Source: a virus (lineage: Duplodnaviria > Caudoviricetes). From it: a stretch of 64,000 nucleotides of DNA. Under the pieces are notes generated by a model. It had not been told where the DNA came from and did no database searches. It saw only the letters and a program-made list of their open reading frames with translations. Shown here one piece after another: positions 24,143 through 47,262 of this stretch. Position 1 is the first letter of the stretch; each line of letters starts with the position of its first letter. The position numbers and the translations under genes were made by a program. The DNA lies in the IMG/VR virus record IMGVR_UViG_3300010167_001484, positions 64,001 to 128,000 of that record; one strand, written 5' to 3'.

Positions 24143-25318
24143 GTGTCAAGTTATGCTGAGATTATAGAGAGAAAAAAGAAAGAATGGAATTCGGAGGGGT
24201 TAATGGATGGTGCAAGAGCTGAAAGGGGTCCAAAGATTCCTTTTAGTTCTCCTCTGATGAATTGGGCTACATACGGCGGCATACCTAGGAATAGAATATC
24301 AGAATTTATGGGGGACCCGGGGGGCGGCAAGTCGACAACGGCTGTAGATATTTGTAAAAATGCTGCTATAATATTCAAGAAAGAATTTGATGATAAAGTT
24401 AATATCGTTAGAGAAAAGATAGCTAAGAATAATAGAAAAGCTGAAGCAGAACTTGAAGATTTATTGGAACAAGGTCCCAGAAATGTTCTGTATATGGATT
24501 TAGAGAATGCATTTGATGGTCCCTGGTCTGAAACATTAGGTATAGATGCTAATAATAAGGGATTTCAGATAATGCAACCTCCTGATGTTGTTGCTGAGGA
24601 TGTATTACAAACTGTAGAAGAAATTATAAATACAGGAGAAGTTGGATTAATTGTATTAGATTCTGTACCATCGTTAGTACCTAGAGCTGAGTTAGAAAAG
24701 AAATATGGTGAAAGAACTGTTGCAGCATTAGCTGGTTTATTAACTATATTCACTCGTAAAATTGTACCTCAATTAACTCGATATAATACAACACTTTTAA
24801 TGATAAATCAAACTAGAGATAATCAAGATAATCCTTATGAAATTAAAACACCCGGAGGTAGAGCTCTCAAGTATTATTCCTCTTTACGTATATTTTTCAG
24901 AGTAGGTTATCCTGTTGATTTTCTTGGTAATGATCTTCCGATGAAAACTGATAATCCTTCTGGATATAAGATAAATGCAAAAATATTGAAGCAAAAAACA
25001 GCTCCTTGGAACAGGAAAGAGGCAACCTATTATCTGATGTGTGATAAGGGTATTGTACCTTTGTTCGATTACACTCAATTAGCTGTGAATAGGTATGGTG
25101 TGATCAAAAAACAAGGAGGTTGGTTCACAATTACTGACCCATTAACTGGTGAGATACTTGTGAATGATAAGAATCAAACAGTTAAGATGAATGGTTTAGC
25201 AAAGGTGTATCAATTTTTACAAGATACTCCTGAATATTATAAGAAATTACAATCATTTATTTTGGAAGATATTAATGGAAAACCTGGTGAAGCGGATATT
25301 GCAGAGGATTCAAATTGA
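24143..25318 (+). CDS. recA: RecA/UvsX-like recombinase
   Basis: GGIPRNRISEFMGDPGGGKST, DLENAFD, LDSVPSLVP, INQTR, TPGGRALKYYSS. Confidence 0.93.
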   Translation: MSSYAEIIERKKKEWNSEGLMDGARAERGPKIPFSSPLMNWATYGGIPRNRISEFMGDPGGGKSTTAVDICKNAAIIFKKEFDDKVNIVREKIAKNNRKAEAELEDLLEQGPRNVLYMDLENAFDGPWSETLGIDANNKGFQIMQPPDVVAEDVLQTVEEIINTGEVGLIVLDSVPSLVPRAELEKKYGERTVAALAGLLTIFTRKIVPQLTRYNTTLLMINQTRDNQDNPYEIKTPGGRALKYYSSLRIFFRVGYPVDFLGNDLPMKTDNPSGYKINAKILKQKTAPWNRKEATYYLMCDKGIVPLFDYTQLAVNRYGVIKKQGGWFTITDPLTGEILVNDKNQTVKMNGLAKVYQFLQDTPEYYKKLQSFILEDINGKPGEADIAEDSN

Positions 25319-25872
25319 TCGAAATTTGGAAAGATATAAAGGGGTATGAAGGAATATACAAGGTGTCAAATTTTGGTAGAGTAAAGAGTATTGATAGAAT
25401 TGGTTCTTATAGAAATCGCAAAGTTAAAGGATGTATAAGAAAGCTAGAAGGTAAGGATTATCTATATGTTTCTTTATGGAATAATAATATATGTAAATTA
25501 GTATTCATTCACAGACTTGTTGCTGAATATTTTGTATCTAATCCTAATAATAAACCTATACCTCACCATAAAGATTTAAATACACATAATAATCATTATA
25601 CTAATTTAGATTGGTTAACACATTCAGAGCATATAAAGCTTCATTGGAAATTAGGTTCTTATGATGCTTGTAAAGATAATATACTTATAGGTTTGAGTAA
25701 TGGTCCTATAGTTAGAAGAAAACCTGTTATATGTGTAGAAACAGGTGGTAGATATGTTAGTAGAATTGATGCTGAACGAGATTTGAATTTAGCTTCTGGA
25801 GATGTATCACAATCTGTAATATATAATGTATCTGTTAAAGGTTATACGTTTGTAGAGGATTCAGGTATATGA
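25315..25872 (+). CDS. NUMOD4-HNH homing endonuclease
   Basis: EIWKDIKGYEG.Y.VSN.GRVKS; HRLVA...HHKD.N..NN...NL.W. Confidence 0.9.
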   Translation: MIEIWKDIKGYEGIYKVSNFGRVKSIDRIGSYRNRKVKGCIRKLEGKDYLYVSLWNNNICKLVFIHRLVAEYFVSNPNNKPIPHHKDLNTHNNHYTNLDWLTHSEHIKLHWKLGSYDACKDNILIGLSNGPIVRRKPVICVETGGRYVSRIDAERDLNLASGDVSQSVIYNVSVKGYTFVEDSGI

Positions 25873-26348
25873 AGAAATCTATAAGTACACAACAGGAAAA
25901 TATGGTAGCTGATTACCTAGGTTGGAAAACTGTAGTAGCATCTGGTGCTAGAGATTTTCATAAAGGTGATGTGGTGAGCAGTGAATGGTTAGGAGAGTGT
26001 AAAACTCATATTAAGAAAGTAGATAAAATTAGTTTTTATCTTTCGGATTACTTGAAAATTTTTAACGAAGCTATGTCAAAGTTTAAGAAACCTATTCTAA
26101 TCTGCGATGATGGTACTCAAACAGTTAAGGGAACTTACGTATTAATTTCATTTAAACATGTACCTGATTGGGTGTATATGTCATTCAAATTTCATATGAT
26201 ATTTGAACCTTCAAGAACTAATATACATATTGTAGGTAAGATGAAAGATGAATTTGATGGATATATATTCACTAAATGGTCTGATTTAGGTCAAATTATA
26301 ATACTTAGATTAGAAATATTCAGAAAAATGATAGAAGGCGAGATATGA
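25869..26348 (+). CDS. Holliday junction resolvase-like PD-(D/E)XK nuclease
   Basis: QE..VA, SGA...KGDV, ECKT motifs. Confidence 0.7.
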   Translation: MKKSISTQQENMVADYLGWKTVVASGARDFHKGDVVSSEWLGECKTHIKKVDKISFYLSDYLKIFNEAMSKFKKPILICDDGTQTVKGTYVLISFKHVPDWVYMSFKFHMIFEPSRTNIHIVGKMKDEFDGYIFTKWSDLGQIIILRLEIFRKMIEGEI

Positions 26349-29248: not shown

Positions 29249-30234
29249 AATTATATTTTAGTGGTGCGTCAACTTTTAGAGCATATGAAACATTGAAGAA
29301 AATGCCCGATTATAGACCTTTAACTCTATTACATACTCAATATGAACGTTCATCTATTGATAAGGTAAAACCCTTCATAGATAGTGGTGATGTTGAACCT
29401 TTATTCATAGATAGTGGAGCATTTTCAGTTCATACAGGTAAAGTTGAAGAGAATATTGAAGAATATGTTCATTATTTAAATGAGATTGATGATTATGTTC
29501 ATCTTGCTGCTCAATTTGATGAAATTCCTGGTGAATATCGCAAACCAAAAACTCCTGAACATTATATATATTCAGCTGAAAGAAGTTGGGCAAATTTCTT
29601 ACAAATGTATGATCATATGAAGTCTCCTGAAAAATTGATATATGTATTCCATCAAGGTGAAGATATATCTAATCTTGTTAGAGCACTAGAATGGAGAGAT
29701 AAAGATGGTAAGGGATTAGGTGTAGTAGGAATATCTGGTCAGAATGACTCTTCAGAAAAGATGAAGAATGAATTTATAATTCAAGCAATAGATATTGTTC
29801 AACATTCTAGTAATCCCAAGTGTAAAACACATCTATTTGGTAGTACAAACAAATATGTAGTAAATGCAGTTCAGCCCTATTCAGCAGATAGTACAACACA
29901 TTTACAGATTGGAATATATGGTAAGATATATATTCCCTCAATATATCAACCTGTGATTGTATCAAATATACAAAGACCTAAAGGTCCTGAATCTGATACA
30001 GCTAATAGTGAAGATGAATCTTCGACAACACTAAAAACACTTCCATATAAAGGTGGATCTGATATGTATAAAGAAGTTGAAACATATCTGCACAGCTTGA
30101 ATCTAACTATGAATGATGTAGAAGGCTCTTCTTATTGTAGAATGGCAGTAAATATATATTATTGGCAAAGGCAATTTGATCATATAACTGATCTAAATGT
30201 GATAACTCACCCTAGATCTAAGAAGTTATTCTAG
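29245..30234 (+). CDS. tRNA-guanine transglycosylase-like protein, probable DNA 7-deazaguanine insertase (DpdA-like)
   Basis: FIDSGAFS, FDEIPG, VFHQGE, HLFG, SADSTT motifs; co-occurs with yhhQ. Confidence 0.8.
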   Translation: MKLYFSGASTFRAYETLKKMPDYRPLTLLHTQYERSSIDKVKPFIDSGDVEPLFIDSGAFSVHTGKVEENIEEYVHYLNEIDDYVHLAAQFDEIPGEYRKPKTPEHYIYSAERSWANFLQMYDHMKSPEKLIYVFHQGEDISNLVRALEWRDKDGKGLGVVGISGQNDSSEKMKNEFIIQAIDIVQHSSNPKCKTHLFGSTNKYVVNAVQPYSADSTTHLQIGIYGKIYIPSIYQPVIVSNIQRPKGPESDTANSEDESSTTLKTLPYKGGSDMYKEVETYLHSLNLTMNDVEGSSYCRMAVNIYYWQRQFDHITDLNVITHPRSKKLF

Positions 30235-30235
30235 A

Positions 30236-30307
30236 ATACAAACAAATTGATCTGGACCAGAAATACATTTAGATCTATAATATGTATACTGGTCTAGGTC
30301 TTTGTAT
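30236..30307 (+). terminator. long imperfect stem-loop at the boundary between the replication and late modules
   Basis: ATACAAA/TTTGTAT, GATCTGGACCAG/CTGGTCTAGGTC (two GU pairs), ATACAT/ATGTAT. Confidence 0.55.
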
Positions 30308-30423
30308 ATCAACTATAAACAAATATGCGATAGGTCCTTGATCTAAGTGATAGGTATAGAGATTATGGATAGATATCTATTATAGATAATTGAAGTAGCA
30401 GATGAAGATTCTTGAAAGTATTA

Positions 30424-30436
30424 AACCTTTAATAAT
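30424..30436 (+). promoter_or_regulatory. AACCTT-N-ATAAT phage late-type promoter motif
   Basis: similar motif at gene junctions 43558, 49908, 58812 and 62524, each before virion-module genes. Confidence 0.6.
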
Positions 30437-30472
30437 AGTGTAAAGATCAATCTGATTATATGAGGTGATATC

Positions 30473-30736
30473 ATGGTACCGAAAGAAGAGATAAATGAGT
30501 TAAAATCAGCGTCAGAACTTAGGACAGCGGCATCAGGAGCTTCTGATAGACTTATATTAGAAGCTATTGCAAGAGCATGTAATTTTGCTGCTAATACAGG
30601 AGAATTGACTACTACATGGACTGGTACATTACCTGAACATTTACAGAAAGCGGTTGAAGCTAAAGGTTACACAGTTACAAATGTGAAGATTGGGAATAGA
30701 CCTGTTGATACTGTTTGGAATTTCAGTTGGAAGTGA
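30473..30736 (+). CDS. hypothetical protein
   Basis: RBS GAGGTG, ATG start. Confidence 0.7.
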   Translation: MVPKEEINELKSASELRTAASGASDRLILEAIARACNFAANTGELTTTWTGTLPEHLQKAVEAKGYTVTNVKIGNRPVDTVWNFSWK

Positions 30737-30740
30737 TATT

Positions 30741-31190
30741 ATGCCTTCAGATATAATTTATGATTTGCATTCATATACTAGTACAACAGAAAATGTGAAA
30801 TTAATAAATGTAAGACAACTCGGGTATTCTATATGGTTAAGAATACCTGAAGATATTGCATCGCAATATGTTTTATTCACAGTTGAGGAGTTATTGAGTA
30901 AACGTGAAGAAGTTCAGAATTTTTCATATTTTATTGAAAGGGAGAATCTTCGACCTTGGTTGAAGGTTCGTACAGATCTACTTAATAAGGAAGAAGGATT
31001 TCATAGCTATAAATTCTCTTTTGTACATATCAAGAAACATGATATAATTTCGTTATATTTTACATATAATATGCAGAATGATAATCCTAGTAAGAGTTAT
31101 CTATTTAAAAATCGTAAGAATTTGAATCCTGAGGTTGAACGAGAATTTTTAAATATGGATGATGGTCAGCGTTGGGAAGGGAGATTGTAG
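30741..31190 (+). CDS. hypothetical protein
   Basis: ATG at 30741 just after the previous stop. Confidence 0.6.
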   Translation: MPSDIIYDLHSYTSTTENVKLINVRQLGYSIWLRIPEDIASQYVLFTVEELLSKREEVQNFSYFIERENLRPWLKVRTDLLNKEEGFHSYKFSFVHIKKHDIISLYFTYNMQNDNPSKSYLFKNRKNLNPEVEREFLNMDDGQRWEGRL

Positions 31191-31205
31191 AGTATGAACT
31201 TTAAA

Positions 31206-31303
31206 TCGTATAAATATACGAAAAAATCGTATAAATATACGAAGTGTTTGTGTGCACCATATCGCAGCGAGCATAATTTGATTTCATTCGTATAAATATA
31301 CGA
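31206..31303. repeat. copy 2 of the three-palindrome element
   Basis: TCGTATAAATATACGA at 31206-21, 31227-42 and 31288-303, with the CCATATCGCAGCGAGCAT core. Confidence 0.9.
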
Positions 31304-31331
31304 AATCATATATAAGAAAAGAGGTAGTAGC

Positions 31332-32117
31332 GTGTCTATTCAAGCTATATTTTCATCTAAATTATATAAAGCTAGTCCACGTAAAGTTAAGATTAGGGCA
31401 GCTCTAAATAGTCCTGTTAATGTTGAGTTAGTTCAACAATTGACTGAATATTTAGATGATGATTCAAAAGAATTATTAGAAAATGAGATTGATAAGGATA
31501 CTAATCTTGATACAGCTAATCCAGAAGGTGGAGAGCCCTCAAAAGGAGGTAGTTCCGGAGGATCTGGAGGAGGCGGAGGATCATTTTCTGGTGGGGGTGG
31601 ATCATTCTCTGGTGGAGGTGGCGGTGAATTCTTCACAGCATCTCCTGATGGTGATATTGAGGAGGGGTTTGATGATTCGGAATCTTCTGGTGATGTGTCT
31701 TTTGAAGATGAATCTGAGGCTCCTGATATAGATGATGGTGATGATGTAGACTCTGGTACAAAGATTAAAGGTCAAGCTATTGCAGCTTGTTATGATCCTG
31801 CTCAACTTCCAGGTCAAATAAAGTCAACTTTGAATATGAGAGAAGATACCGCAGGAGTAGAACGAGTTGCTACTAAGGAATGTGAACTCTGGATATATTA
31901 TAATGATAAAGTTAATCTTAACAATGTGATGTCTATGGTAATTGAGGTATTGAATGCTGCAAGTTATAGTTATTTGAATTTTAACAGGTTAGCTCGAACT
32001 GATAATGCGATTGTATTTGATATTGATTTAGTCAATTCAGAACAATTAGTTGAACCTATAGAAGAAAAAGATATAGAACCTATTGGTAATCCGGAAGATC
32101 GTATTGTGAAGGAGTAA
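31332..32117 (+). CDS. hypothetical protein with Gly-rich/acidic disordered linker (possibly head-associated)
   Basis: GGGSFSGGGGSFSGGGGGEFF followed by an acidic tract. Confidence 0.65.
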   Translation: MSIQAIFSSKLYKASPRKVKIRAALNSPVNVELVQQLTEYLDDDSKELLENEIDKDTNLDTANPEGGEPSKGGSSGGSGGGGGSFSGGGGSFSGGGGGEFFTASPDGDIEEGFDDSESSGDVSFEDESEAPDIDDGDDVDSGTKIKGQAIAACYDPAQLPGQIKSTLNMREDTAGVERVATKECELWIYYNDKVNLNNVMSMVIEVLNAASYSYLNFNRLARTDNAIVFDIDLVNSEQLVEPIEEKDIEPIGNPEDRIVKE

Positions 32118-32120
32118 AGG

Positions 32121-32318
32121 ATGAAGAAATTAGTTAAGTCTGATATTGATGAAGAATTAGATCAGAATATAACAGATTTAGTAGATGAATTCAATACTCA
32201 AGTTATGGACCCTGATTCTGAATTACGTAAATTGTTATCTGGTTATGTTGATGATGCTATATTAGAAGAAGCATTGATAGCAGCTATGCAAACATTTAAT
32301 GAAATTATATTAGGATAG
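32121..32318 (+). CDS. leader-peptide array protein (MKKLVKS)
   Basis: basic leader followed by an acidic body. Confidence 0.7.
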   Translation: MKKLVKSDIDEELDQNITDLVDEFNTQVMDPDSELRKLLSGYVDDAILEEALIAAMQTFNEIILG

Positions 32319-32329
32319 GGAGATAAATT

Positions 32330-32551
32330 ATGAAGAAGATAATAAGATCTAATGTTAGGGAAGGGTCTAGAGATATAGTAACATCTGGTTTGAATGTATT
32401 GGCTAGCAAGGCAGATGAAATAATACTTTGGGACAAATTACGTGAATTTGAAGAATTTTTATATGAAATAGAGCATGATGTCAATGTGAAGGATATTCAG
32501 AAAGCTATTGATGTATTCATCAATGATTTTGATTGGACTATAGATAAGTAA
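32330..32551 (+). CDS. leader-peptide array protein (MKKIIRS)
   Basis: basic leader followed by an acidic body. Confidence 0.7.
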   Translation: MKKIIRSNVREGSRDIVTSGLNVLASKADEIILWDKLREFEEFLYEIEHDVNVKDIQKAIDVFINDFDWTIDK

Positions 32552-32572
32552 TTCTAGATGGTTAGGTAAATT

Positions 32573-32935
32573 ATGAAAATTCTTGCTCGTACTCGCGAAG
32601 ATATACCTTTAGAAAACCAAGGTGGAAATTGTTTCAAAGTAGCATTTGAAACAATGCAGAAAGATCCTAAGAAGTATATACTTGTTCACGCAGTAGTAAC
32701 TGGTCAAGGCCCTATAGAAGGTGTTAAATACAGTCATGCTTTCGTTATAGATGATAGTAGAGATATTGTAATTGATAATACACTCAAAGGATCTGAAAAA
32801 GAATTTCCCGTTGGTTTGTATTACAGTATTGGTGAAATTGAGATTTCTAAAGAATACACTTATAGAGAAGCTCTTAAAGCTATTGTAAAATATGAACATT
32901 GGGGTCCTTGGGATTCGGAGATAAGTAGATATTAA
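32573..32935 (+). CDS. leader-peptide array protein (MKILAR) with Cys-His papain/transglutaminase-like motifs
   Basis: GNCF, LVHAVV, HAFV, VID motifs. Confidence 0.65.
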   Translation: MKILARTREDIPLENQGGNCFKVAFETMQKDPKKYILVHAVVTGQGPIEGVKYSHAFVIDDSRDIVIDNTLKGSEKEFPVGLYYSIGEIEISKEYTYREALKAIVKYEHWGPWDSEISRY

Positions 32936-32947
32936 AGGACGGGAATT

Positions 32948-33250
32948 ATGAAAAGATTGATAAGGGCTAATAAAACTCCTGTGGGGGCTATTCTTAGTAA
33001 AGTTGCTAATACTGTTAATAATGAATTTAAAGGTACAAGTCTTCATGTATCTAGAAATGATGGTGGTACTACTTATTCTATAACTGTTGACAATTCAGAT
33101 GATCTTCATCTATTAGACGAAGCTGTAGATTTCATAAATAACAAGTATCCAGATCTTGAAGCATTTACACATAAAAACCGTATGGCTAAATATAATGACC
33201 CAAATACTCGTAGCGGTATGCCTACTAAAGGTGTTATGCGTTATAGATAG
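32948..33250 (+). CDS. MKRLIRA-leader protein
   Basis: shared N-terminus, unique body. Confidence 0.75.
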   Translation: MKRLIRANKTPVGAILSKVANTVNNEFKGTSLHVSRNDGGTTYSITVDNSDDLHLLDEAVDFINNKYPDLEAFTHKNRMAKYNDPNTRSGMPTKGVMRYR

Positions 33251-33307
33251 TAATCATGGAAGTTGTTGTGAAGATAATTTATAGTTTATAATGAGTTATC
33301 ATATTAG

Positions 33308-33384
33308 TACATCAACTCCCACAAGAGTTGTATCAAATATATAAGAAAATTGAAGGTAAAATTTAATGAAGAGGTTGATAAGGG
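33308..33384 (+). repeat. 77-bp cassette-boundary repeat (hairpin + RBS + MKRLIR codons)
   Basis: identical to 34898-34974; 6 substitutions versus 34477-34553; partial copies near 35322, 36579 and 36989. Confidence 0.92.
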
Positions 33385-34193
33385 CGACTGATTATAAACT
33401 GGAAAAACACGAAAGAACTAAATATAAAAGTAAATTAAGGTCATCTACAAGTAAATTATTAAAAGAGCAATTCGGTACGAGTGTAACTATTAATAGTTTC
33501 AAGTATGATTTCTATGGTGAAGATACTATATGTATAACTTTTGAGTCCGATTCATTTGAGGGCCGTGTAGTTCTTGCTATTCTTGGTGATTATAATGGTT
33601 ATAATGCAATTGAAATAAATGGTAATTATTTTGGATCTTGGGGAAATAACAGTCAATTCTCAGAAAATGAGTTTGTGTCAAGTCAAACATTTAAGAATGA
33701 TTTTGTACCTTTATTTGAAGAATACTTTCAATCTATAGGGTTAGGTAAACCAGATAAGCCGGCTGAATTGCGAGTTAATCCTAAGCAAAGTCCTATGATG
33801 GTAGCAGTTGTTAAGGATCTATTGAATGATCTTAGAAGTCAAGTGAATCTACCTTTTAGTGATGCAGAAATAGTTGGATCTATTGGTAGAGAGATAAATC
33901 ATAGTGATTTATCTTTAGATTGGATTGATTTGAGTTATTCGGATGTATGTGGATTATTTTTAGGTTTTAGAGTAACTTATCATTATGTTAATGAGTATGC
34001 TTTCAAATTGTATGATATAGAAAGTGGTAGTTCATGTTGGGAATCATTTGGACGTCGTAGATTAAGTGTACTTCAACGAAAGAAGGATAGTGGTAATTGG
34101 TTTGAGACTGAAAGTATACATGTTAATAAAGAGAGCTATCCTGAGATATTTGAATTACCTGCATATAAGAAATTATATGATGAATATTATTGA
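33366..34193 (+). CDS. MKRLIRA-leader protein (275 aa)
   Basis: shared N-terminus; preceded by the repeat. Confidence 0.8.
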   Translation: MKRLIRATDYKLEKHERTKYKSKLRSSTSKLLKEQFGTSVTINSFKYDFYGEDTICITFESDSFEGRVVLAILGDYNGYNAIEINGNYFGSWGNNSQFSENEFVSSQTFKNDFVPLFEEYFQSIGLGKPDKPAELRVNPKQSPMMVAVVKDLLNDLRSQVNLPFSDAEIVGSIGREINHSDLSLDWIDLSYSDVCGLFLGFRVTYHYVNEYAFKLYDIESGSSCWESFGRRRLSVLQRKKDSGNWFETESIHVNKESYPEIFELPAYKKLYDEYY

Positions 34194-34223
34194 AGAAGTT
34201 TAAGATAGAAAGGTGTAAACATT

Positions 34224-34535
34224 ATGCCTAGAAAATTACCAATAACCGAAGAGCTAAATTTTCATTATTTATTAGGTTTAATGCCTGCTTTGAAGAATGA
34301 ACCAGAATTTGAATGGTTGCCAGAATTATTTTCAATAGTAGGTTATGAATCACTAATAGATCTTTGTAGATTTGCCGGTGGAGAAACAATAAGAATACCT
34401 ACTTTAGATGAATTAACTACAAGTATAGATGTATTACAATGGTATTATGATATCAATGTGAAGCGGTCTAAGAAGCTACATCAACTCCCAATAGAGTTGT
34501 ATCAAATATATAAGAAAGTTGAAGGTAAAATATAA
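34224..34535 (+). CDS. Mor/C-like transcription-activator-family protein; its 3' end carries the cassette repeat in frame
   Basis: ELFSIVGYESLIDLCRFAGGETIRIP resembles the Mor family; C-terminus HQLPIELYQIYKKVEGKI is encoded by the repeat. Confidence 0.6.
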   Translation: MPRKLPITEELNFHYLLGLMPALKNEPEFEWLPELFSIVGYESLIDLCRFAGGETIRIPTLDELTTSIDVLQWYYDINVKRSKKLHQLPIELYQIYKKVEGKI

Positions 34536-34888
34536 TGAAAAGATTGATAAGGGCTGATGGAACACGAAAAGAGTCTTTGCTGAATCAACTTGAACCTGAA
34601 TTGATAACAGTGTTGAAGCAAAATGGGTTGAAACATAAATGGCATTATGGTCAAAGTAGATTCACATCTAGTATATTATCATTCGAAGAGATTGTTGATA
34701 TATTGGTATCTGAAGGGTGTATAATTCTGAAGGCAGTTAATTATCCTTGTAGAGGTGGGGGTCGTACTCAATATACGATATTACAAACTCCTGAAGGTTT
34801 GAAGTTAAGTGTAGAGTATTTCAGCAAAGTGTCTTCATACATAATGGAACATAAAGATACACATCATATGTATGATACAGCGGGATAG
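34535..34888 (+). CDS. MKRLIRA-leader protein (GC..TP.G domain)
   Basis: shared N-terminus; start overlaps the stop of the Mor-like gene. Confidence 0.8.
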   Translation: MKRLIRADGTRKESLLNQLEPELITVLKQNGLKHKWHYGQSRFTSSILSFEEIVDILVSEGCIILKAVNYPCRGGGRTQYTILQTPEGLKLSVEYFSKVSSYIMEHKDTHHMYDTAG

Positions 34889-34955
34889 CTGATTTAATAC
34901 ATCAACTCCCACAAGAGTTGTATCAAATATATAAGAAAATTGAAGGTAAAATTTA

Positions 34956-35282
34956 ATGAAGAGGTTGATAAGGGAGTCAGAAGAATTAATAACAGATATA
35001 TCATCAATAAAAGACTTACTAGATAAGGAGGTTATATCTATATTAATTGATCTTGGTTATGTATATAGACCTAATAATAATGAATATACAAAGAAAAAGA
35101 ATTCAGATTCAAATATATATGATTTATTTTATGCACTTGAATCTGTTGGATGTGTTGTCAAACAAAAACACCGTCAATCTGAAATATATAGTCGAGGAAC
35201 GTCTAAGATTTACACAACTCCTAATGGTGTAGATATTGTGATATATGGTGGAGGCGGAATAGCTGTAAAACTTGCAAATTGA
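34956..35282 (+). CDS. MKRLIRE-leader protein (GC..TP.G domain)
   Basis: preceded by an exact 77-bp repeat copy. Confidence 0.8.
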   Translation: MKRLIRESEELITDISSIKDLLDKEVISILIDLGYVYRPNNNEYTKKKNSDSNIYDLFYALESVGCVVKQKHRQSEIYSRGTSKIYTTPNGVDIVIYGGGGIAVKLAN

Positions 35283-35348
35283 TGTAATTATAAATATTAT
35301 CTAAGTGTGATTTATTATATTAAATAAGAAAATTGAAGGTAAAATTTA

Positions 35349-35909
35349 ATGAAGAGGTTAATAAGGGCTAGTAGATCTAAAGAAGTTACATTAAATCGTG
35401 TAGAACATGATAGAGATTCAGAAGTATATAAGGGAGAAGGTGAACGTATTTACTATGATTATTTTGACTCTCAAGATAATTATTTAGTATCTATATGTTA
35501 TTTTCCTAAGAGTAATGGCTTATTTGTTGACGAAACTAGACTATGGGAAGAGTTAAATTCTGATACTAATGTTATGCCGTTCACTCACAGAAGAAGTAAT
35601 GGTGAAGAATCTATACATCATGTAAATAAAGGTTCATTAAGAACATATTACGATTCCATAGATAAGTTTGAGCGTCAACTTAGGAAGTTATACAAAGCAA
35701 ATTGTATTGATATTAAAGAAGATGATTCTTATGAAGGTGACAGTTATGAGAGTGACGGTGATTCATACCTCAACCAACTCGAAGCCGAAGGATATGAATG
35801 CACTGATCAATCTACACAAGGTGGAGGAAGAGTAGGAACCTACACATATGAGCATCTTGAAACTGGTGATGTGATTGTTGTTGATGCAGGAGACTACAAT
35901 TGGGATTAA
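35349..35909 (+). CDS. MKRLIRA-leader protein
   Basis: preceded by a partial repeat. Confidence 0.8.
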   Translation: MKRLIRASRSKEVTLNRVEHDRDSEVYKGEGERIYYDYFDSQDNYLVSICYFPKSNGLFVDETRLWEELNSDTNVMPFTHRRSNGEESIHHVNKGSLRTYYDSIDKFERQLRKLYKANCIDIKEDDSYEGDSYESDGDSYLNQLEAEGYECTDQSTQGGGRVGTYTYEHLETGDVIVVDAGDYNWD

Positions 35910-35933
35910 TTGATAGAAAGTCGAGAATATGAT

Positions 35934-36536
35934 ATGAAAAGATTGATAAGGACGTCTCAAGAAAATTCTATTCAGAATATTCAAAATAATTGTGAAAATA
36001 TATTAAAATCTCAATTACAGGTTGAAAATTCTACTGTCAAAGTTGATATAAGTGATAATAGGCTTAGACCTGAGATAAATATTAAGTTTTATTTAAACGG
36101 GCGTGCACGACCAATAACAAAAACATATTATCCTTTCAACAGAAGTAAACAATGGGGACTATCATATCATGCTGATGCAAGTGATAGTGATATTAAATTG
36201 ATATATAATTTAGATTATAACTGTATAGTAGAATTAGGTCGTATGTTAACTCGAACTAAATCATTCACAACTAAGTTAGATTCTAATATTAAATCTATGT
36301 TATTAGGTTTAGGATTTAAATATAATGCATCAGAATCATCGTTCAGATTATATGCAGATCCAAATACTATAGATTTATTCAATAAATTACAATCATCCGG
36401 ATGCGAATTAGTATCTAATGATTCTCAATATGATACTGTATATCAAACACCTGAAAATGTCAAAATATCAATATATGTTAGTAATAATCCTCGTTCTTAT
36501 CATGGTGATTACATATCAATTAGCGAAGCATCTTAA
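35934..36536 (+). CDS. MKRLIRT-leader protein (C-terminal GC..TP domain)
   Basis: ATG at 35934 gives the shared leader. Confidence 0.75.
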   Translation: MKRLIRTSQENSIQNIQNNCENILKSQLQVENSTVKVDISDNRLRPEINIKFYLNGRARPITKTYYPFNRSKQWGLSYHADASDSDIKLIYNLDYNCIVELGRMLTRTKSFTTKLDSNIKSMLLGLGFKYNASESSFRLYADPNTIDLFNKLQSSGCELVSNDSQYDTVYQTPENVKISIYVSNNPRSYHGDYISISEAS

Positions 36537-36610
36537 TAATCATACTGGTAAGGATTAGGAGATACAATAAAATTCTATAAAATATATAAGAAAGTTGAAG
36601 GTAAAATTTA

Positions 36611-36910
36611 ATGAAAAGATTGATAAGAGCAGGAAGTAATAACATATATAGTAAATTAGAGCAAGCATTACAAGGACATTTGAATCAGATGTTAGGAGAT
36701 CAAAATTTTAAATTTGATATTAATCTTGAATTTGAAGATGAAGAGATGTGTATAGATATAGATGTTATGGATTCTAATAATGCTATTCTATATACAGGAG
36801 GATTCATGCTTGAGCGTGATCGTTTATCTAAAGCTAATCTCAATGCTTCCGCGTATGGTGTAGTGGAATCTTTGAAAGAGATATTATATGATGAAGAGTT
36901 GATAAAGTAG
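36611..36910 (+). CDS. MKRLIRA-leader protein
   Basis: preceded by a partial repeat. Confidence 0.8.
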   Translation: MKRLIRAGSNNIYSKLEQALQGHLNQMLGDQNFKFDINLEFEDEEMCIDIDVMDSNNAILYTGGFMLERDRLSKANLNASAYGVVESLKEILYDEELIK

Positions 36911-36913
36911 TAT

Positions 36914-37033
36914 ATTAAGAGATTGATAATAGTAAACAGAACATTGGGGTATAGTGATTATGATAATTGGAGTGAATTAAAATTCTTCATAGAGTTTTAT
37001 CAAATATATAAGAAAGTTAGGGATAAGATATGA
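36914..37033 (+). pseudogene. remnant cassette (IKRLII...EFYQIYKKVRDKI)
   Basis: ATT-AAG-AGA-TTG-ATA degenerate leader, in frame with a diverged copy of the repeat peptide. Confidence 0.55.
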
Positions 37034-37260
37034 AAAGATTGATAAGGGCTCAAAGTGAACTCAAGAAGACTGTTAGTGTTAGTTTTCAAGTAGATATTCC
37101 TATAGATATGGAAAATAATTCTTATAGAGATATAGTTAAAGCTAGAGTAGGTCTTAGTAATGGTGTTAATGTAGTTGTTCAAGATGCATTTATTCCTGAA
37201 ATTGCTAATCAAGTAGAGACTGATGAGTTATTAGAATCATTACAGAATAAGGGTTCATAA
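37030..37260 (+). CDS. MKRLIRA-leader protein
   Basis: preceded by a diverged repeat. Confidence 0.75.
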   Translation: MKRLIRAQSELKKTVSVSFQVDIPIDMENNSYRDIVKARVGLSNGVNVVVQDAFIPEIANQVETDELLESLQNKGS

Positions 37261-37460
37261 TGTTAGAAATAATCAAAGAATCTATACAACAGTTATCAAA
37301 TATAACCTTTAATGAATTTTATATGAAGTATGTATTTGATATACAAGATCAGAATATGGAAGCCGAATTTAATCAGATAACAACTGCGGCTACTGCATAT
37401 AGGACTGATGTCAAATTTGTAGATAAATTATTGAATAATGCAATGAAAGGGCTAGTGTAA
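37260..37460 (+). CDS. hypothetical protein
   Basis: start overlaps the previous stop; no leader. Confidence 0.6.
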   Translation: MLEIIKESIQQLSNITFNEFYMKYVFDIQDQNMEAEFNQITTAATAYRTDVKFVDKLLNNAMKGLV

Positions 37461-37463
37461 ATT

Positions 37464-37664
37464 ATGAAGAAGCTGGTTAAAAGTAATTATAGTGGTCAAG
37501 ATATAATAGATCTAGAGAATCGTATCAAGAGTGCTGAAATCTATTTGGAAGATATAGTATCTGCATTTCATAGATTAATTGACGAAGGTAGAATGGTTGA
37601 GATTGATGATGCTTTAGATACAATTATTCCTTCGTTGATAGATGTATGGAAGAAACATTGTTAA
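37464..37664 (+). CDS. leader-peptide array protein (MKKLVKS)
   Basis: same leader as 32121. Confidence 0.7.
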   Translation: MKKLVKSNYSGQDIIDLENRIKSAEIYLEDIVSAFHRLIDEGRMVEIDDALDTIIPSLIDVWKKHC

Positions 37665-37674
37665 AGGGGCTATC

Positions 37675-38064
37675 ATGAAAAGATTGATTAGATCTAATAC
37701 TGCAACACTTAGAAGTTTACCTACAAGTTATTTAGCAGATGCTATAAGAGATTTGTGGAATGGTCCTGAAGAGAGTATACCTACGTGTCAGAAAGAATAT
37801 ATTGAATATTTTAATAATAAGGGTATAGATATTTCTGATGAAGAACAATGGGATCGTGCATGGGATGAAGCATGTGGTCCTGAACCTGAAGAAGAGGTTC
37901 TAAAATTAGGTGGTAGAGAGTTTTATGATAGGCATGACGCTAGTGAATGGTTGATAGAGAAAACTCAAGAATATGGTAATACATATTTCTTTCCAGATAA
38001 TGATAGATATGTATTAAATCAACTTATCGAGAAATTCGGTAATACTTATTTTTGGAATAGATAA
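37675..38064 (+). CDS. MKRLIRS-leader protein
   Basis: ATG at 37675 after RBS AAAGGGG. Confidence 0.75.
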   Translation: MKRLIRSNTATLRSLPTSYLADAIRDLWNGPEESIPTCQKEYIEYFNNKGIDISDEEQWDRAWDEACGPEPEEEVLKLGGREFYDRHDASEWLIEKTQEYGNTYFFPDNDRYVLNQLIEKFGNTYFWNR

Positions 38065-38075
38065 GGATTAAACAG

Positions 38076-38522
38076 ATGATAAGTGCTCAGATATTTAGAA
38101 ATTTATATGTTGATTTATATAAAGAATTGCGTAAATATCTCTGGGATATAGATGCTGTTACATTGATTGTGGATTTAGAAACTGAAACACATAAAGCATT
38201 TCCAGATGTGATTCAACTAAATTCTATATTGGGTAGACTTAAGAGACAAACTATAAGTACATCTCTTGAAGATGAGGAATTGTCAGATGCATTTGATAGT
38301 TTTGAAGAAGCTTTGAAAGATGTAGATGATTTTGTTACATTAATAAAATATCCCACGCCTACACCTTTAGATGTAGAGAAAACTGAAGATGAAGATGAGG
38401 TTTTGGAAGAAGCTATAGATGATAATCTTGAAGATGGATTTGAGGGAGATGTAGAAGAAGAATCGTCTGAAGAAACTGGTTTTGGGGAATTTGAGGAGGA
38501 GGTTGAAAATGAAAATCAGTAA
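38076..38522 (+). CDS. hypothetical protein with acidic C-terminus
   Basis: ORF with RBS. Confidence 0.65.
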   Translation: MISAQIFRNLYVDLYKELRKYLWDIDAVTLIVDLETETHKAFPDVIQLNSILGRLKRQTISTSLEDEELSDAFDSFEEALKDVDDFVTLIKYPTPTPLDVEKTEDEDEVLEEAIDDNLEDGFEGDVEEESSEETGFGEFEEEVENENQ

Positions 38523-38709
38523 AAGTAGTATTAATGCAAATAAACGAGCATCTAATAATGTCAAAGCTACAACAAATAATAGAAGTGAAGCAGTGGAATA
38601 TATCCAATCTGCAATACATTCATTAGGTACAAATGCTAAAGATGATGTAGTTGCGAAAGAATCAATAGCAAATCTTAGTGTTATATTGTTCGATTTGAAG
38701 GGAAGTTAA
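38509..38709 (+). CDS. hypothetical protein (MKISKSSINA...)
   Basis: ATG at 38509 after GAGGAGG. Confidence 0.65.
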   Translation: MKISKSSINANKRASNNVKATTNNRSEAVEYIQSAIHSLGTNAKDDVVAKESIANLSVILFDLKGS

Positions 38710-38713
38710 ATCT

Positions 38714-38899
38714 ATGAAGAAGGTTGTAAAATCAGCATATGATGAATCTAACGAAGGAATTAAACGGGAAATTGTAGATAAATTATCTGAAATTTATGAA
38801 ACTATAGCTAATAATCCAGATTTGTTAGATACACCTGATATATCTGAGAGTATTAATGAGTTGTCTAGTTTATTGTTTGAAATAACTGGTTTAGCATAG
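38714..38899 (+). CDS. leader-peptide array protein (MKKVVKSA)
   Basis: basic leader, acidic body. Confidence 0.65.
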   Translation: MKKVVKSAYDESNEGIKREIVDKLSEIYETIANNPDLLDTPDISESINELSSLLFEITGLA

Positions 38900-38911
38900 A
38901 TATAAAGATAG

Positions 38912-39454
38912 GTGAAATGGATGGCAGGTTCTGAAACCGTCAGTACCGGCGGAAATAATTATTTGAATCCTTTAGTAACTAAACAGAGAGAAAATGTAGC
39001 CAGAATGCGAACCGCATTACTGGCTTCAACTGATGATAATACTGTAACAATGCGTCAAGCTATTCAGAATATTACTGCTATGCGTATCTACCATCAATTA
39101 ACAAGAATAATACAATATACCGAATTGATGACTGAACTTGAAGATAAACTTTATGATTCTATTTCAGATACTGTGAGGACAGCTCCAACGACTGATCCAA
39201 CAACATGGATAGCACTTCTTAATATACAGGAAAGATTACAGAAGAATTTGATTGAAAGTCATAAATTACTTCAGCCTTACCTTAATGTATCAGAATTTAA
39301 TATAGTAGATCTAGTAGATGCACCAGTTAGTGATGAGACGGAAGAAAGTACAGGATTGATAATATCTTCTCAATCTAGGGATAATATTAGAATACGTGCT
39401 CAAGCGATACTTTCGCAAATTGAAATATTAAATAATAATGAAGGAGAAAATTAA
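38912..39454 (+). CDS. helical protein, candidate terminase small subunit
   Basis: size, helical character and position two genes upstream of terL. Confidence 0.4.
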   Translation: MKWMAGSETVSTGGNNYLNPLVTKQRENVARMRTALLASTDDNTVTMRQAIQNITAMRIYHQLTRIIQYTELMTELEDKLYDSISDTVRTAPTTDPTTWIALLNIQERLQKNLIESHKLLQPYLNVSEFNIVDLVDAPVSDETEESTGLIISSQSRDNIRIRAQAILSQIEILNNNEGEN

Positions 39455-39777
39455 TGGAAACTTGTCAATGTGAAGATCACGGTCATGAAGTAATCAAGGA
39501 TACGGCAAAATATATTGCAAAAGTAGATATTATAAATAATATCGATACACAACTCAATCAGTTTATAGCTGAACACGAAGAATTAACAAAACGTTCTGAT
39601 GAATATCTTAATGTTGTTGAAAATATTCGTATTAAATTGTTTGGGATAAAGGGTGCAGTAGACGCTCTCAATTCACTCAAAGATACGTTCAATAATTTTA
39701 TTGAATCAAACCCTAATATAGGTTTTATACCTTCGGAATCTAGTATGATTGAGGATAATGAACACAGTAATAATTGA
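39454..39777 (+). CDS. hypothetical coiled-coil protein
   Basis: RBS; start overlaps the previous stop. Confidence 0.6.
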   Translation: METCQCEDHGHEVIKDTAKYIAKVDIINNIDTQLNQFIAEHEELTKRSDEYLNVVENIRIKLFGIKGAVDALNSLKDTFNNFIESNPNIGFIPSESSMIEDNEHSNN

Positions 39778-41725
39778 AGATGATATATTAGAGAGAATAC
39801 AGAATATATATGATAGTTGTACTGAAGAGGAGCAAGGTTACCTTATACAAATTCTTGAAGAATTTAGTAGTAGAGGTTATTCAGAAACCTATGAAAAAGT
39901 ATGGTTAGCTGATTATAGAGAAATTCCTGTAGATATAAACACTTTTATAGAATCTGATACTTATCTTGGTAGAACCAACAATCAAGGTAAAGCAGTATAC
40001 CCTTTCTGGCGGAAAGAACTTCGTTCATTTTTTGGTGCAGGTAATAAATATCATGAATGGGTTCTAACAGGTGCAACTCGTATAGGTAAGACCTCAACAG
40101 CTATAACAGCTACTTGTTATATGTTGTATCGTATAATGTGTCTTAGAAATCCTCAAGCATTTTTCAAGTTGAAGGATATATCTAAATTTAGTATACTATT
40201 CTTCAATATAACAAAAGATTTGGCTCAAGGTGTTGCTTATCAAGAATTTAATGCTACTTTAGCTGCTAGTCCATGGTTTCAAGCGCATGGTACGATGTCT
40301 CGTAGTATCAAGAATCCTTATTATATTCCCGAGGGTGGAAAGATAGATATTGACTTTGGTTCAGATGCGTCGCACGGACTTGGAAAACAAATCATTGTCG
40401 GGTTCTTGGATGAGGTGAATTTTAGTCAAGCAGGTGTCAAAGATGTAAATAAAGCTAAATCACGTATGAGAGCTACATATAATACCGTATCTACTCGTGT
40501 TAAAGGTACTTTTAGAATAGAAGGAGAGGTATTAGGTAAAGTATTTGCAGTTAGTTCTAAACGTAGTGACTCAGATTTCATGGAAGCTTATGTTCAAGAG
40601 CAAAGGAATGCTGGTGCAGGTGACAACATGTATATCACAGATGCACCACAATGGGAAGTATTTCCTCCAGGTAAATTCAGTAAAGAAACATTCTGTATAG
40701 CTTTAGGTGATAGATATCAAAGAGGGTTTGTTTTAAATGATGATCAGTGTTTTCCCGAAGCTATAAGAGATTTAGAAGCTCAAGGATTCAAAATATTACG
40801 ACCACCTATAGATATGAAGTCGGATTTTCTAGCAGATTTTCTTATAGCACTTCGAGATCTAGCAGGTATAGCTATTGTAGGTATGATGTCATTTATAACA
40901 CAAGATACAATTGATACATGTATAAATAGAACAAGACGAAATCCTTTCTATAGTGAAATATTACAGATTGGTACTAAAGATAGCTATACTATAGAAGAAT
41001 ATTTCCATATAGAGGATCTGCCCTCGAATATAAAAAAAGCACCTCTATTTATACATCTAGATCTTTCTAAGAATATAGATAGAACCGGTTTAGGCGGAGT
41101 GGCAATAACAGGCAGAAAGGATATATTAAGTAATATAGAAGATGAAAAAGGTAATACTAAACAAATTAAGATATCTCAACCTACTTTTACTCATGTGTTT
41201 AGTCTTGCTATAGAAGCGCCGAGGGGTGATAAGATACCTTATGCTAAGATTACAGCTTTTATATGTTGGTTACGGTCTAATCATTTTAATATCCTAGGAG
41301 TTAGTGCGGACCAGTTCCAAAGCGAATACATGCTACAACTCTTAGAAGCACAAGGCTTTGATGTAGATAATATATCGTTAGATAGGACACCTGATGGATA
41401 TATAACAACAAGATCTATTCTAATGGAACAAAGAATTGATTTGTTGAATCATAAATTACTTCAAGATGAATTAATTCATTTACAACGAGATTCTGCTACA
41501 GGGCGCTTGAATCATCCAATAGGACAAACAAAGGATATATCTGATGGGTTGGCGGGAGCTCTTCTAAATGCAACAAGAAAAAACCCTCCTATAGCTTTAC
41601 CTGGTAAAACATTATCTAAAGTAGTAACAACTGTGAATAAACCTGATAGAATGCCTCAAGGTGTAGTTAAAGGTGCAGATCTACCCAGTGTATTTGGTGA
41701 TTTGTATAAGAATTATAGAAAATAA
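39758..41725 (+). CDS. terL: terminase large subunit
   Basis: VLTGATRIGKTS Walker A, GFLDE Walker B, HLDLS and KDISDG RNase-H-like nuclease acidic residues. Confidence 0.9.
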   Translation: MNTVIIEDDILERIQNIYDSCTEEEQGYLIQILEEFSSRGYSETYEKVWLADYREIPVDINTFIESDTYLGRTNNQGKAVYPFWRKELRSFFGAGNKYHEWVLTGATRIGKTSTAITATCYMLYRIMCLRNPQAFFKLKDISKFSILFFNITKDLAQGVAYQEFNATLAASPWFQAHGTMSRSIKNPYYIPEGGKIDIDFGSDASHGLGKQIIVGFLDEVNFSQAGVKDVNKAKSRMRATYNTVSTRVKGTFRIEGEVLGKVFAVSSKRSDSDFMEAYVQEQRNAGAGDNMYITDAPQWEVFPPGKFSKETFCIALGDRYQRGFVLNDDQCFPEAIRDLEAQGFKILRPPIDMKSDFLADFLIALRDLAGIAIVGMMSFITQDTIDTCINRTRRNPFYSEILQIGTKDSYTIEEYFHIEDLPSNIKKAPLFIHLDLSKNIDRTGLGGVAITGRKDILSNIEDEKGNTKQIKISQPTFTHVFSLAIEAPRGDKIPYAKITAFICWLRSNHFNILGVSADQFQSEYMLQLLEAQGFDVDNISLDRTPDGYITTRSILMEQRIDLLNHKLLQDELIHLQRDSATGRLNHPIGQTKDISDGLAGALLNATRKNPPIALPGKTLSKVVTTVNKPDRMPQGVVKGADLPSVFGDLYKNYRK

Positions 41726-43606: not shown

Positions 43607-45109
43607 GTGGCTAATAGATTATTAGAACGACTTATTCCTAGCGATAAGAAAAATAGAAATAAATTCACATCATTTATTCGCAAAGTTGTAGCTGGTTCAT
43701 TCTATAAATTCAGTGATCTGAGAGGTAATACAAGTTTAGCTGATATAAATACTATGATAGAGATGATGCGAGAACTTGCAAGAGATTCTCAAATAGCTAC
43801 AGCTTTATCATACTATGCAACTGATGCAACAACGTATAATACAGATAATCAAATAATTTGGGCTACTTCTAAAACTAATCCAGACTTAGCTGAAATCATA
43901 AATCAACTCTTTAAGAAATGGAAAATCAATACGTATGCTAGAGATCATATTCTTGAACTTGCAACTATAGGTAATTTATATATTCCTACAACGGAGATGT
44001 ACAAAGTTGAGGGTAGAGCGACATCTCGTAATCTAATTGCATTAGACAACAATACAATACCTGAGGTAGAATTTGATATTGTTCCCTCTTATAAAATCCC
44101 TCCTGAAAATATAGTGCATCTTTGGTTTGAAGGTCAACCTGAAGGTTATATGTATCAACCTGAAGATAATTCTACACAATTTGTAAATTATTCTGAATCT
44201 GCTGTTATACATTTCTCTTTAGGAGGACTTCTAGGTGAATATACTCTAGATACAGTATTACCTGGTGGGGATGTAAAAACATATGATATAATGTTTGCTC
44301 AACCTTTGATGGTAAGAGCTATTCAGCCTACACAAACATTGAGTCTTTTAGAGGATGCATTATTGTTATCCTCATTATCCCGTGTTGTGAGATTTGTAAA
44401 TGTGGAATGTGGTAATGCAGAAGAAGAGGAAATCCGAGCAACACTTCAAGAATTGAAAGATGCTATCGAACAACAACTTGCTATAAATACTAATACGGGT
44501 GATGCACAAAGTTTTGTTAATCCTCAAAGTCCGAATAATCTGATATTCTTACCTAAAATAAATGGTGCTGATTCTATATCTGTAACAGATTTGAATGTAG
44601 CAGATGCAACTGAAGCGGATAATAAACTCCTTCAACATTATATGGATAAGAAATTATCTGTTCTAGGTGTGCCAAAAGAGGCTATGAACTTTTCTTCTAA
44701 TGAAGGTCTTGGAGGTGCAGGTACAGTTCTTGCTCAAAGATCTCAATTATATGCTAATTCATTACAACGTCTAATGACTGCATATAAAGAGGGCTGGAAA
44801 GATGCTTTGAATACAAGGTTTATAGCATTAGGATTCAGCGGATTTGTAGATCAGTTTGAATTAAACATGAACCCAATTTTAACTCAACAATCTACTCTAA
44901 CCTTCGAGAAACGTGATGCAGCATTGAGTCAAGCAACTGCATTATTCACATTACTCAGAGATATGGGTGTAGATGATCCTAATACATTTAGAGATGGTTT
45001 AGTTGAAATATTATCTGAGGTATTCCCACAGATAGGTGCTCAGATAAGTAAATGGAATATCAATGTTGAAGGTGAAGGGGAAGAAGGTGGTGGGTTAGGT
45101 GAATTCTAG
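43607..45109 (+). CDS. portal protein
   Basis: 500 aa near terL; IATALSYYA.D, R.VRFVNV.CGN, KLSVLGVPKE motifs resembling T4 gp20-type portals. Confidence 0.8.
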   Translation: MANRLLERLIPSDKKNRNKFTSFIRKVVAGSFYKFSDLRGNTSLADINTMIEMMRELARDSQIATALSYYATDATTYNTDNQIIWATSKTNPDLAEIINQLFKKWKINTYARDHILELATIGNLYIPTTEMYKVEGRATSRNLIALDNNTIPEVEFDIVPSYKIPPENIVHLWFEGQPEGYMYQPEDNSTQFVNYSESAVIHFSLGGLLGEYTLDTVLPGGDVKTYDIMFAQPLMVRAIQPTQTLSLLEDALLLSSLSRVVRFVNVECGNAEEEEIRATLQELKDAIEQQLAINTNTGDAQSFVNPQSPNNLIFLPKINGADSISVTDLNVADATEADNKLLQHYMDKKLSVLGVPKEAMNFSSNEGLGGAGTVLAQRSQLYANSLQRLMTAYKEGWKDALNTRFIALGFSGFVDQFELNMNPILTQQSTLTFEKRDAALSQATALFTLLRDMGVDDPNTFRDGLVEILSEVFPQIGAQISKWNINVEGEGEEGGGLGEF

Positions 45110-45428
45110 TGTATTCTTTAAAGAATTAAAATCTTTTAATAGTACTAATTATCGTACTTTATTGAATGCAGATCTTTCAGCTGAGGATGCATCTATAATA
45201 AAAGCATTTAGCTCAGCTATAACTCGATTCTTTATATTTGTTGAAAAACATCCTCAAATGAGTGAAACTGATAAAAGGGTGCTATATTTCAAGCTGAAAT
45301 TAGATATGGTGGCAAGTTATTTTGCAGATTTTCCAGAATCTAATATAGATCTTCTAAAAGGGTTTCAACATGAATTATTGAAATATAACAAGTCTGTTAA
45401 AGACGATACTACTAGTTTAAGAAATTGA
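45099..45428 (+). CDS. hypothetical protein
   Basis: ORF overlapping the end of the portal gene. Confidence 0.6.
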   Translation: MNSSVFFKELKSFNSTNYRTLLNADLSAEDASIIKAFSSAITRFFIFVEKHPQMSETDKRVLYFKLKLDMVASYFADFPESNIDLLKGFQHELLKYNKSVKDDTTSLRN

Positions 45429-45434
45429 GGTAGC

Positions 45435-45632
45435 TTGATGGAAGAATATATTATACTTAAATTAACTAATCTTACAGCTGAACAAAGAAATTGGATTGAA
45501 AATAATATGAATCCAACGGTTGAATCTATATGTGAATTCATAAATTGTCCTCCTGAAAAGAGTGATATATGTCGTTGTGATGGTTGTATGTTTGATGGAG
45601 TAGGTCCTACTATTGAGTTAGTTGAGGAATGA
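45435..45632 (+). CDS. hypothetical protein
   Basis: ORF with RBS. Confidence 0.5.
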   Translation: MMEEYIILKLTNLTAEQRNWIENNMNPTVESICEFINCPPEKSDICRCDGCMFDGVGPTIELVEE

Positions 45633-45635
45633 GTT

Positions 45636-47246: not shown

Positions 47247-47262
47247 ATAGGTGGAATGACTT

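Follow-up and report, generated by a model that had tools for sequence, protein, structure and literature searches.

The 3' end of a Mor-like gene repeated before leader-tagged small genes in an uncultured 214-kb phage

Does a sequence block repeated at the starts of consecutive small phage genes reveal a dedicated system of gene capture, or is it a by-product of ordinary recombination? This question is raised by a window of 64,000 nucleotides (bases 64001-128000 of the 214,046-bp virus record IMGVR_UViG_3300010167_001484, 33% G+C), to which all positions given below refer unless another record is named. The window contains an array of 13 small genes that begin with the same short basic leader peptide, and seven of these are preceded by a block of up to 77 bp related to the 3' end of a 103-aa gene labelled "Mor-like" (Table 1). 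In a preliminary description, the block was interpreted as the boundary repeat of integron-like cassettes, captured in frame behind the leader and then gained, lost or shuffled by recombination, either through the RecA and resolvase of the phage or through a recombinase recognising a CAACTC-N6-GAGTTG hairpin contained in the block.

The repeated block and its source gene

The sequences 33308-33384 and 34898-34974 (copies A and C) were identical over all 77 nt, with unrelated flanks on either side. Based on an nhmmer profile of the copies, six clear copies were recovered in the 214-kb genome (E 4e-22 to 3e-13), located 5' of the genes starting at 33366, 34535, 34956, 35349, 36611 and 37030; no further ones were found apart from a marginal copy before 35934. 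All copies retained a relic of the source reading frame, ending in ...KK(V/I)EGKI* or ...KKVRDKI* and closed upstream by stop codons. Given the exact match, the profile E-values and this conserved frame, the repeat is real and far beyond chance. The identical pair and the shorter or diverged copies reported in the preliminary description were thus all recovered, with the copy before 35934 as a marginal addition. An eighth, decayed copy considered at 34163-34200 (74% identity over 38 nt) was discarded, as the profile search did not recover it.

Copy B is the only one that forms part of an intact source gene: within its first 59 nt lie the codons for the 19 C-terminal residues of gene 34224-34535 together with the stop (LHQLPIELYQIYKKVEGKI*), and its last 19 nt cover the start of gene 34535 from the ATG onwards, stop and start overlapping as TAATG. 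It differs from A and C at six positions, two of them in the hairpin loop, one causing a Val to Ile change, one synonymous, and two synonymous within the leader. The C-terminal pattern H-x-x-P-x-E-L...Y-K-K-V of the source protein was conserved at the protein level, also in phages without cassette genes, and the orthologous 3' ends in the two closest relatives (loci L068 and L070) aligned with copy B at the DNA level, indicating that the coding copy is ancestral and the other copies its relics. The derivation of the block from the 3' end of this gene, as previously proposed, is upheld by the same evidence. In L070, a single leader gene (MKVLIRA) begins 17 nt within the Mor-like 3' end in another frame (1820-1836 of that locus). 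The Mor-like protein is 5-6 residues shorter in the window and in L068 than in L070, and its stop codon overlaps the ATG.

The label "Mor-like" is retained here as a name; similarity to Mor of phage Mu remained below threshold in sequence and was weak and tied in structure. The protein from the window had no Pfam match at E<=1, Pfam Mor (PF08765) was touched below threshold by 5 of 28 homologues (best E 0.043), and the sole PDB match of the family profile was Mu Mor (1rr7, E 0.39), across the GG..I.IP region. An AlphaFold2 model (predicted local distance difference test, pLDDT, 68) gave no match in Foldseek, and in VIA-align, Mor (1rr7, Z 3.5) and Mu C (9l0x, Z 3.4) appeared among many tied weak helical matches.

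The copies formed a gradient of decay, their recognisable 5' extent ranging from -58 (A and C) through about -51 (E), -47 (F) and -37 (D) to -22 (G). Two variants of the block were interleaved along the array (A, C and D versus B, E, F and G). Moreover, the junction subtype of F and G, with an ATGA overlap, was like the junction between the Mor-like gene and the first cassette in L068, and scar G had an orthologous counterpart in a further relative, L074. Taken together, the differing extents, the shared junction subtype and this counterpart indicate that the scars differ in age, G being old, and that such events recurred over a long time.

A 39-codon frame at 36915-37034 opens with the decayed leader ATT AAG AGA TTG ATA ATA (IKRLII, with ATT replacing ATG), and its end is formed by the Mor-like relic ...FIEFYQIYKKVRDKI*. 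It resembles a collapsed cassette that has become fused to the scar.

Leader peptide, cassette bodies and related loci

Thirty genes of the genome, all on the + strand, start with M-[KR]-[KR]-[LIV]-[LIV]-[KR], compared with an expectation of about 0.16 based on how often the motif occurs internally; they occur in several clusters, and 13 of them lie within 32121-38899. Synonymous codons of the leader differed at every position (AAA/AAG, AGA/AGG/AAA, TTG/TTA, ATT/ATA), so that the peptide is the level at which the leader is conserved. The block-preceded genes have a seven-residue protein start in common. The upstream regions of the other 23 leader genes were unrelated, with ordinary ribosome-binding site (RBS) regions.

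Among the bodies that follow the leader, a domain of about 100 aa is common to those of 34535 and 34956 and to the C-terminal half of that of 35934 (BLAST E 7e-10 to 4e-3); these three are 26-32% identical as proteins. Blocks compared as such were 70-100% identical. From -58 to +21, identity among TAATG-type copies was 65-99%, with 83-98% in the ATG-proximal 52 nt, compared with 27-38%, the random level, for the next 150 nt of the bodies. This contrast indicates that block and leader were moved or homogenised independently of the bodies. As three of the bodies are old paralogues, the others are unrelated and the blocks are similar, block and leader are also either much younger than the genes behind them or homogenised. 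That leader and body are separable modules is indicated by gene 37675-38064, whose C-terminal ~85 residues (...NQLIEKFGNTYFW.R) were found behind unrelated N-termini in unrelated neighbourhoods (P0130-P0132; L075 and L076). The 275-aa protein encoded at 33366-34193 had no homologue among 5.8 billion proteins, and ten array proteins had no match in Pfam and PHROGs.

Weak repeated matches to the ankyrin repeats of a 1,227-aa protein were obtained with the ~100-aa domain (34535-34888, 34956-35282 and 36230-36536), with a phmmer E of 7e-9 summed across eight repeats and about 1e-3 for single alignments. Its fold may be ankyrin-like, with two repeats.

Thirteen related loci were recovered for comparison. 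Nine of them (L004-L009 and L071-L073, covering up to ~190 kb where the contig was long) showed a compact order of c1, Mor-like gene, c2, c3, c4, c5 and terminase, with no leader genes near the Mor-like gene in any of the nine; in five whole records, no match to a degenerate leader pattern was obtained. The number of leader genes close to the Mor-like gene was one in L070 (directly after it), about eight in L068 (a 218.8-kb contig), at least six in L074 and 13 in the window. The slots of individual cassettes also differed: in L068, the orthologue of 37675 comes immediately after the Mor-like gene, but in the window the gene is found 3.1 kb downstream, between c2 and c3, the latter position being shared by L074, and the orthologue of 38714 precedes c4 in L074 and follows c4 (core gene 38482) in the window. 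Homology of cassettes between relatives ran from ATG to stop codon, with differing flanks.

The block itself had no exact match in viral contigs and was not present in the related loci, none of which is close enough to carry the same block. In metagenome contigs, 58 single matches to a 20-mer were not followed by the leader and were rejected as chance hits. In the array of L068, the leader codons were the only repeats at cassette boundaries, and no relic of the Mor-like 3' end was found. Since the block is private to this genome and the arrays of L068 share only the leader codons, the block appears to be a local scar and not the general recombination site of the system. With respect to the earlier expectations, the locus was indeed a stack of leader-tagged cassettes with mostly unrelated bodies, and cassette number and order varied among relatives (0 to 13 leader genes); the boundaries of homology between relatives lay at gene starts and stops.

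Two further observations concern leaders in relatives. In L068 (9424-12647), leaders occur in near-identical 24-nt pairs reaching the eighth codon (MKRLIRAA, MK[VR]LIKSS and MKRLIKSN, each twice), which hints at pairwise duplication or conversion there too. In the leaderless relative L008, an extra 83-aa gene before the Mor-like gene (2907-3158) starts with MVVKRIIAS, resembling the KRLIRAS core of the leader.

How the block may have spread

The block is probably a duplication scar, spread by homology-driven duplication and recombination with no integron-like machine. Segmental duplications with their left end inside the Mor-like 3' end would have built the sub-array 33366-37260, each of them placing the last ~19 codons, the overlapping stop/start with the RBS and the MKRLIR codons before successive genes. 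The non-coding relic would then decay from its 5' side, and the ~35 nt next to the ATG, containing the RBS, would persist together with the leader. Conversion or exchange would be expected to interleave the two block variants, whereas simple serial duplication would not; recombination between homologous copies or gene conversion may therefore have exchanged or homogenised blocks and leaders later, most recently in the identical copies A and C. The phage encodes both a UvsX/RecA-like recombinase and a Holliday-junction resolvase, the enzymes named as one of the two options in the preliminary description, and these would presumably be enough for exchange during replication, with no site-specific recombinase involved. 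In the wider phage group, the leader codons and not the hairpin would provide the repeated homology flanking every cassette, and leader homology would best explain the presence of whole ATG-to-stop open reading frames (ORFs) in different slots of relatives.

Several points weigh against this explanation. Four of the seven block-preceded bodies showed no detectable paralogy, so that simple duplication alone is insufficient for those genes, and the arrival of the block at a gene without upstream homology is unexplained. Local alignments suggested that the relic extends ~40 nt further 5' in C, E and F, and this apparent homology to the Mor-like gene beyond the block was not significant against shuffled sequences (p 0.03 to 0.9). 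The 5' edge, identical in A and C, calls for either a shared origin or a boundary with a function. Part of the pattern could also be mimicked by strong purifying selection if the block contained a regulatory element that has escaped recognition, and another assembly of this phage (219,527 bp) showed an identical gene layout through the array.

A comparable process is known from phage T4, in which tandem segmental amplification (dmd-tifA) takes place at microhomologies of 6-10 bp with boundaries inside neighbouring genes (bioRxiv 10.1101/2022.04.14.488369). Repeat-unit ends within neighbouring genes, recombination by the phage and junction scars are common to both cases, and here too the left end of the unit lies inside a gene, the Mor-like one. 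The T4 copies are, however, recent, identical and under selection, whereas in the window the junction blocks are similar and the bodies diverged (three of seven paralogous) or not detectably related (four of seven).

A more far-reaching possibility, rather doubtful at present, is that the leader codons, here together with the scar left by the upstream gene, serve as a portable adaptor that supplies homology. Single ORFs would be cut out by recombination between leaders, possibly in the form of mini-circles, and inserted again in frame behind the same tag, either at another leader site or in a relative infecting the same cell. If true, this would amount to integrase-free gene capture for tag-addressed, possibly virion-loaded, accessory proteins in a jumbo-phage lineage.

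Among the alternatives to the duplication scar, a mobile regulatory cassette was considered first. In the T4-type phages RB49 and phi1, promoter-early stem-loop (PeSL) cassettes undergo modular shuffling with mini-circles (Arbiol et al. 2010, PMC2839356; Comeau et al. 2014, PMC4122927). By analogy, the block would have a function of its own that selection maintains, be it as a promoter, as a hairpin for RNA stabilisation or processing, or in translation initiation, and cassettes would be excised and inserted through recombination between copies, for instance as mini-circles. As in RB49 and phi1, short repeated blocks border small ORFan genes in a hyperplastic region, and homologous recombination between copies, by the phage's own system and without an integrase, is proposed to delete, duplicate or move single genes. 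Copies A and C are identical direct repeats, such as the integration of a circle would leave. The ATG-proximal part of the block holds the RBS, and the 12-mer ATATATAAGAAA, which occurs six times on the + strand, was found in five block copies and at 31308, just 5' of the first gene of the operon. PeSLs, on the other hand, consist of a sigma-70 promoter and a terminator stem-loop, are distributed genome-wide and are common to related phages, whereas the block is composed of a coding relic, an RBS and N-terminal codons and is restricted to a single stretch of 4 kb in one genome. A function as promoter or terminator was rejected: no sigma-70-like promoter was detected within any copy, promoter-like matches in the region (58) were below the shuffle mean (62.5), the sole terminator-like site in 30000-40000 was intragenic, at 36804, and the block hairpin has no T-run. 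No Rfam match was obtained for the block, and its folds did not depart from those of shuffled sequences (z-scores -1.2 to +1.2). Considering also that related arrays do without the block and that the 23 remaining leader genes have unrelated upstream regions, a regulatory cassette appears unlikely.

Selection alone would require an old array in which the blocks were kept as a translational or regulatory element, with no recent recombination. It would account for the peak of conservation next to the ATG, for the predicted minimum free energy folds, in which TATCAA of the block pairs with TTGATA of the leader and encloses the RBS, and for the stable layout between the two assemblies. The distal half of the block, however, is perfect in A and C and fully decayed in D and G, so that constraint is not uniform. 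As the variants are interleaved, the folds are no better than those of shuffles and other leader genes manage with ordinary RBS regions, we regard this explanation as quite improbable.

The palindrome on which the integron analogy was based was present in exactly three copies, that is, at three of seven junctions, and its stem consists of the Gln-Leu and Glu-Leu codons of the Mor-like gene; at the same codons in L068 and L070, the hairpin was absent. The statement that the stem is invariant and the loop variable is literally correct and rests on just two distinct sequences: if six differences were scattered by chance over the 77 nt, all 12 stem positions would be spared with a probability of about 0.35. 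The genome contains 67 perfect 6-bp stems of the same type (0.31 per kb), and the fold of the hairpin was no better than that of shuffled sequence (z -0.5 to +0.3). The attC sites of integrons are imperfect palindromes of 55-140 bp with R and L boxes, and integron arrays carry the tyrosine recombinase IntI. In six-frame searches of the 214-kb record, no match was found to tyrosine recombinases (PF00589; positive control matched in 14/14 genomes), serine recombinases (PF00239) or reverse transcriptases (RVT_1), the positive controls of the latter two also matching. Integron-like capture, in which a recombinase would recognise the folded palindrome like an attC, is thus extremely improbable: the one-directional stack of cassettes without visible internal promoters and the palindrome at some boundaries are reminiscent of an integron, yet neither IntI or another recombinase nor attI nor the attC architecture is present, the perfect 6-bp stem with its 6-nt loop lacks R and L boxes and is a by-product of the source gene's coding sequence, and relatives shuffle cassettes without it.

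The leader invites a different comparison, with the internal-protein (IP) locus of T4, whose polymorphic members carry a capsid targeting sequence (CTS) (Repoila et al. 1994, as cited in PMC3012670). The two loci are alike in being a polymorphic set of unrelated small proteins with a short N-terminal peptide in common, located beside head genes and varying in content between phages; conservation of the leader at the peptide level among otherwise unrelated proteins is also what a CTS locus displays. They differ in that the T4 CTS is MKTYQEFIAE and is cut by the gp21 protease, whereas the leader described here is a basic M-K-R-L-I-R-A/S, its packaging and cleavage being putative, and the phage has 30 tagged genes in several clusters. 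No protease was named by PHROGs and Pfam in 45099-47874, and the T4-type prohead protease PF03420 gave no match, which is uninformative since its control matched nowhere either.

This locus illustrates the way in which the accessory gene set of an uncultured 214-kb phage is enlarged, tagged small ORFans being stacked between conserved late genes; its leaderless relatives have genomes of about 148 kb. As the repeated junction is younger than the genes behind it, the scar is a datable trace of events, and it testifies directly, at the sequence level, to concerted evolution or exchange at the starts of genes. Exchange mediated by the leader, if demonstrated, would extend the PeSL idea from regulatory to coding-sequence repeats and would link gene shuffling to a protein-addressing tag; the case is set apart from PeSLs because its repeat is a coding relic with RBS and N-terminal codons in place of promoter and terminator. 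It is an instructive yet fairly ordinary instance of recombination-driven plasticity, for which the integron analogy is to be dropped.

Genomic setting and other sequence motifs

Nearly all genes of the record are on the + strand. The array sits between replication and recombination genes on its 5' side, with a family-A polymerase encoded upstream, and head genes on its 3' side; the conserved core genes 34224, 37260, 38076 and 38482 are interspersed among its 13 leader genes, and the Mor-like gene is embedded within the block-preceded sub-array. The locus gave no megablast match to named phages.

Table 1. Features of the array and its surroundings (window positions)
Feature	Position	Strand	Description
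UvsX/RecA-like recombinase	24143-25318	+	phrog_97, E 3e-58; candidate driver of homology-dependent exchange
Holliday-junction resolvase	25869-26348	+	phrog_2002, E 2e-11
Whole hyperplastic array	32121-38899	+	13 genes beginning M-K-[KR]-[LIV]-[IV]-[KR]
Block-preceded sub-array	33366-37260	+	leader genes 33366, 34535, 34956, 35349, 35934, 36611 and 37030
Copy A	33308-33384	+	non-coding relic of Mor-like 3' end, RBS and MKRLIR leader of the 275-aa ORFan 33366-34193; identical to copy C
Mor-like gene	34224-34535	+	103 aa; source of the block; core gene of the phage group, upstream of terminase and portal; 597 homologues
Copy B	34477-34553	+	ancestral copy; last 19 codons and stop of Mor-like gene, overlapping ATG and first 6 codons of 34535
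Copy C	34898-34974	+	relic, RBS and leader of gene 34956-35282; begins 9 nt past the stop of 34535
Copy D	35298-35368	+	5' of gene 35349-35909; ATG-proximal ~37 nt and leader recognisable; variant as in A and C
Copy G (marginal)	35915-35953	+	5' of gene 35934-36536; strongly decayed; nhmmer E 0.06
Copy E	36558-36630	+	5' of gene 36611-36910; relic traceable to about -51; left hairpin arm lost
Copy F	36976-37049	+	5' of gene 37030-37260; older subtype, ATGA stop/start overlap
Terminase	39749-41725		downstream of the array
T4-type portal	43607-45109		downstream of the array

Motifs of possible regulatory function were also observed elsewhere in the record. A near-palindrome, TCGTATAAATATACGA, which includes the T4 late-promoter-like TATAAATA, occurs as intergenic doublets or triplets at 31207-31304 (three copies) and 4026-4060, as well as at genome coordinates 139786-139820; one of these sets lies directly 5' of gene 31332, the head of the array-containing operon. 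This makes it a candidate for a promoter specific to the phage or for the site of a regulator, possibly the Mor-like protein. Another intergenic motif, AAAATTTCGTTATAGTAT(A/G)T, was found 5' of at least nine genes, all of them outside the window (genome coordinates about 2000, 7230, 44020, 63260, 129800, 176530, 180560, 203830 and 207230), and classical TTGACT-N17-TATAAT promoters were present at a few other sites, e.g. 5' of 13494. Together, these three kinds of sites suggest at least three promoter classes in this phage.

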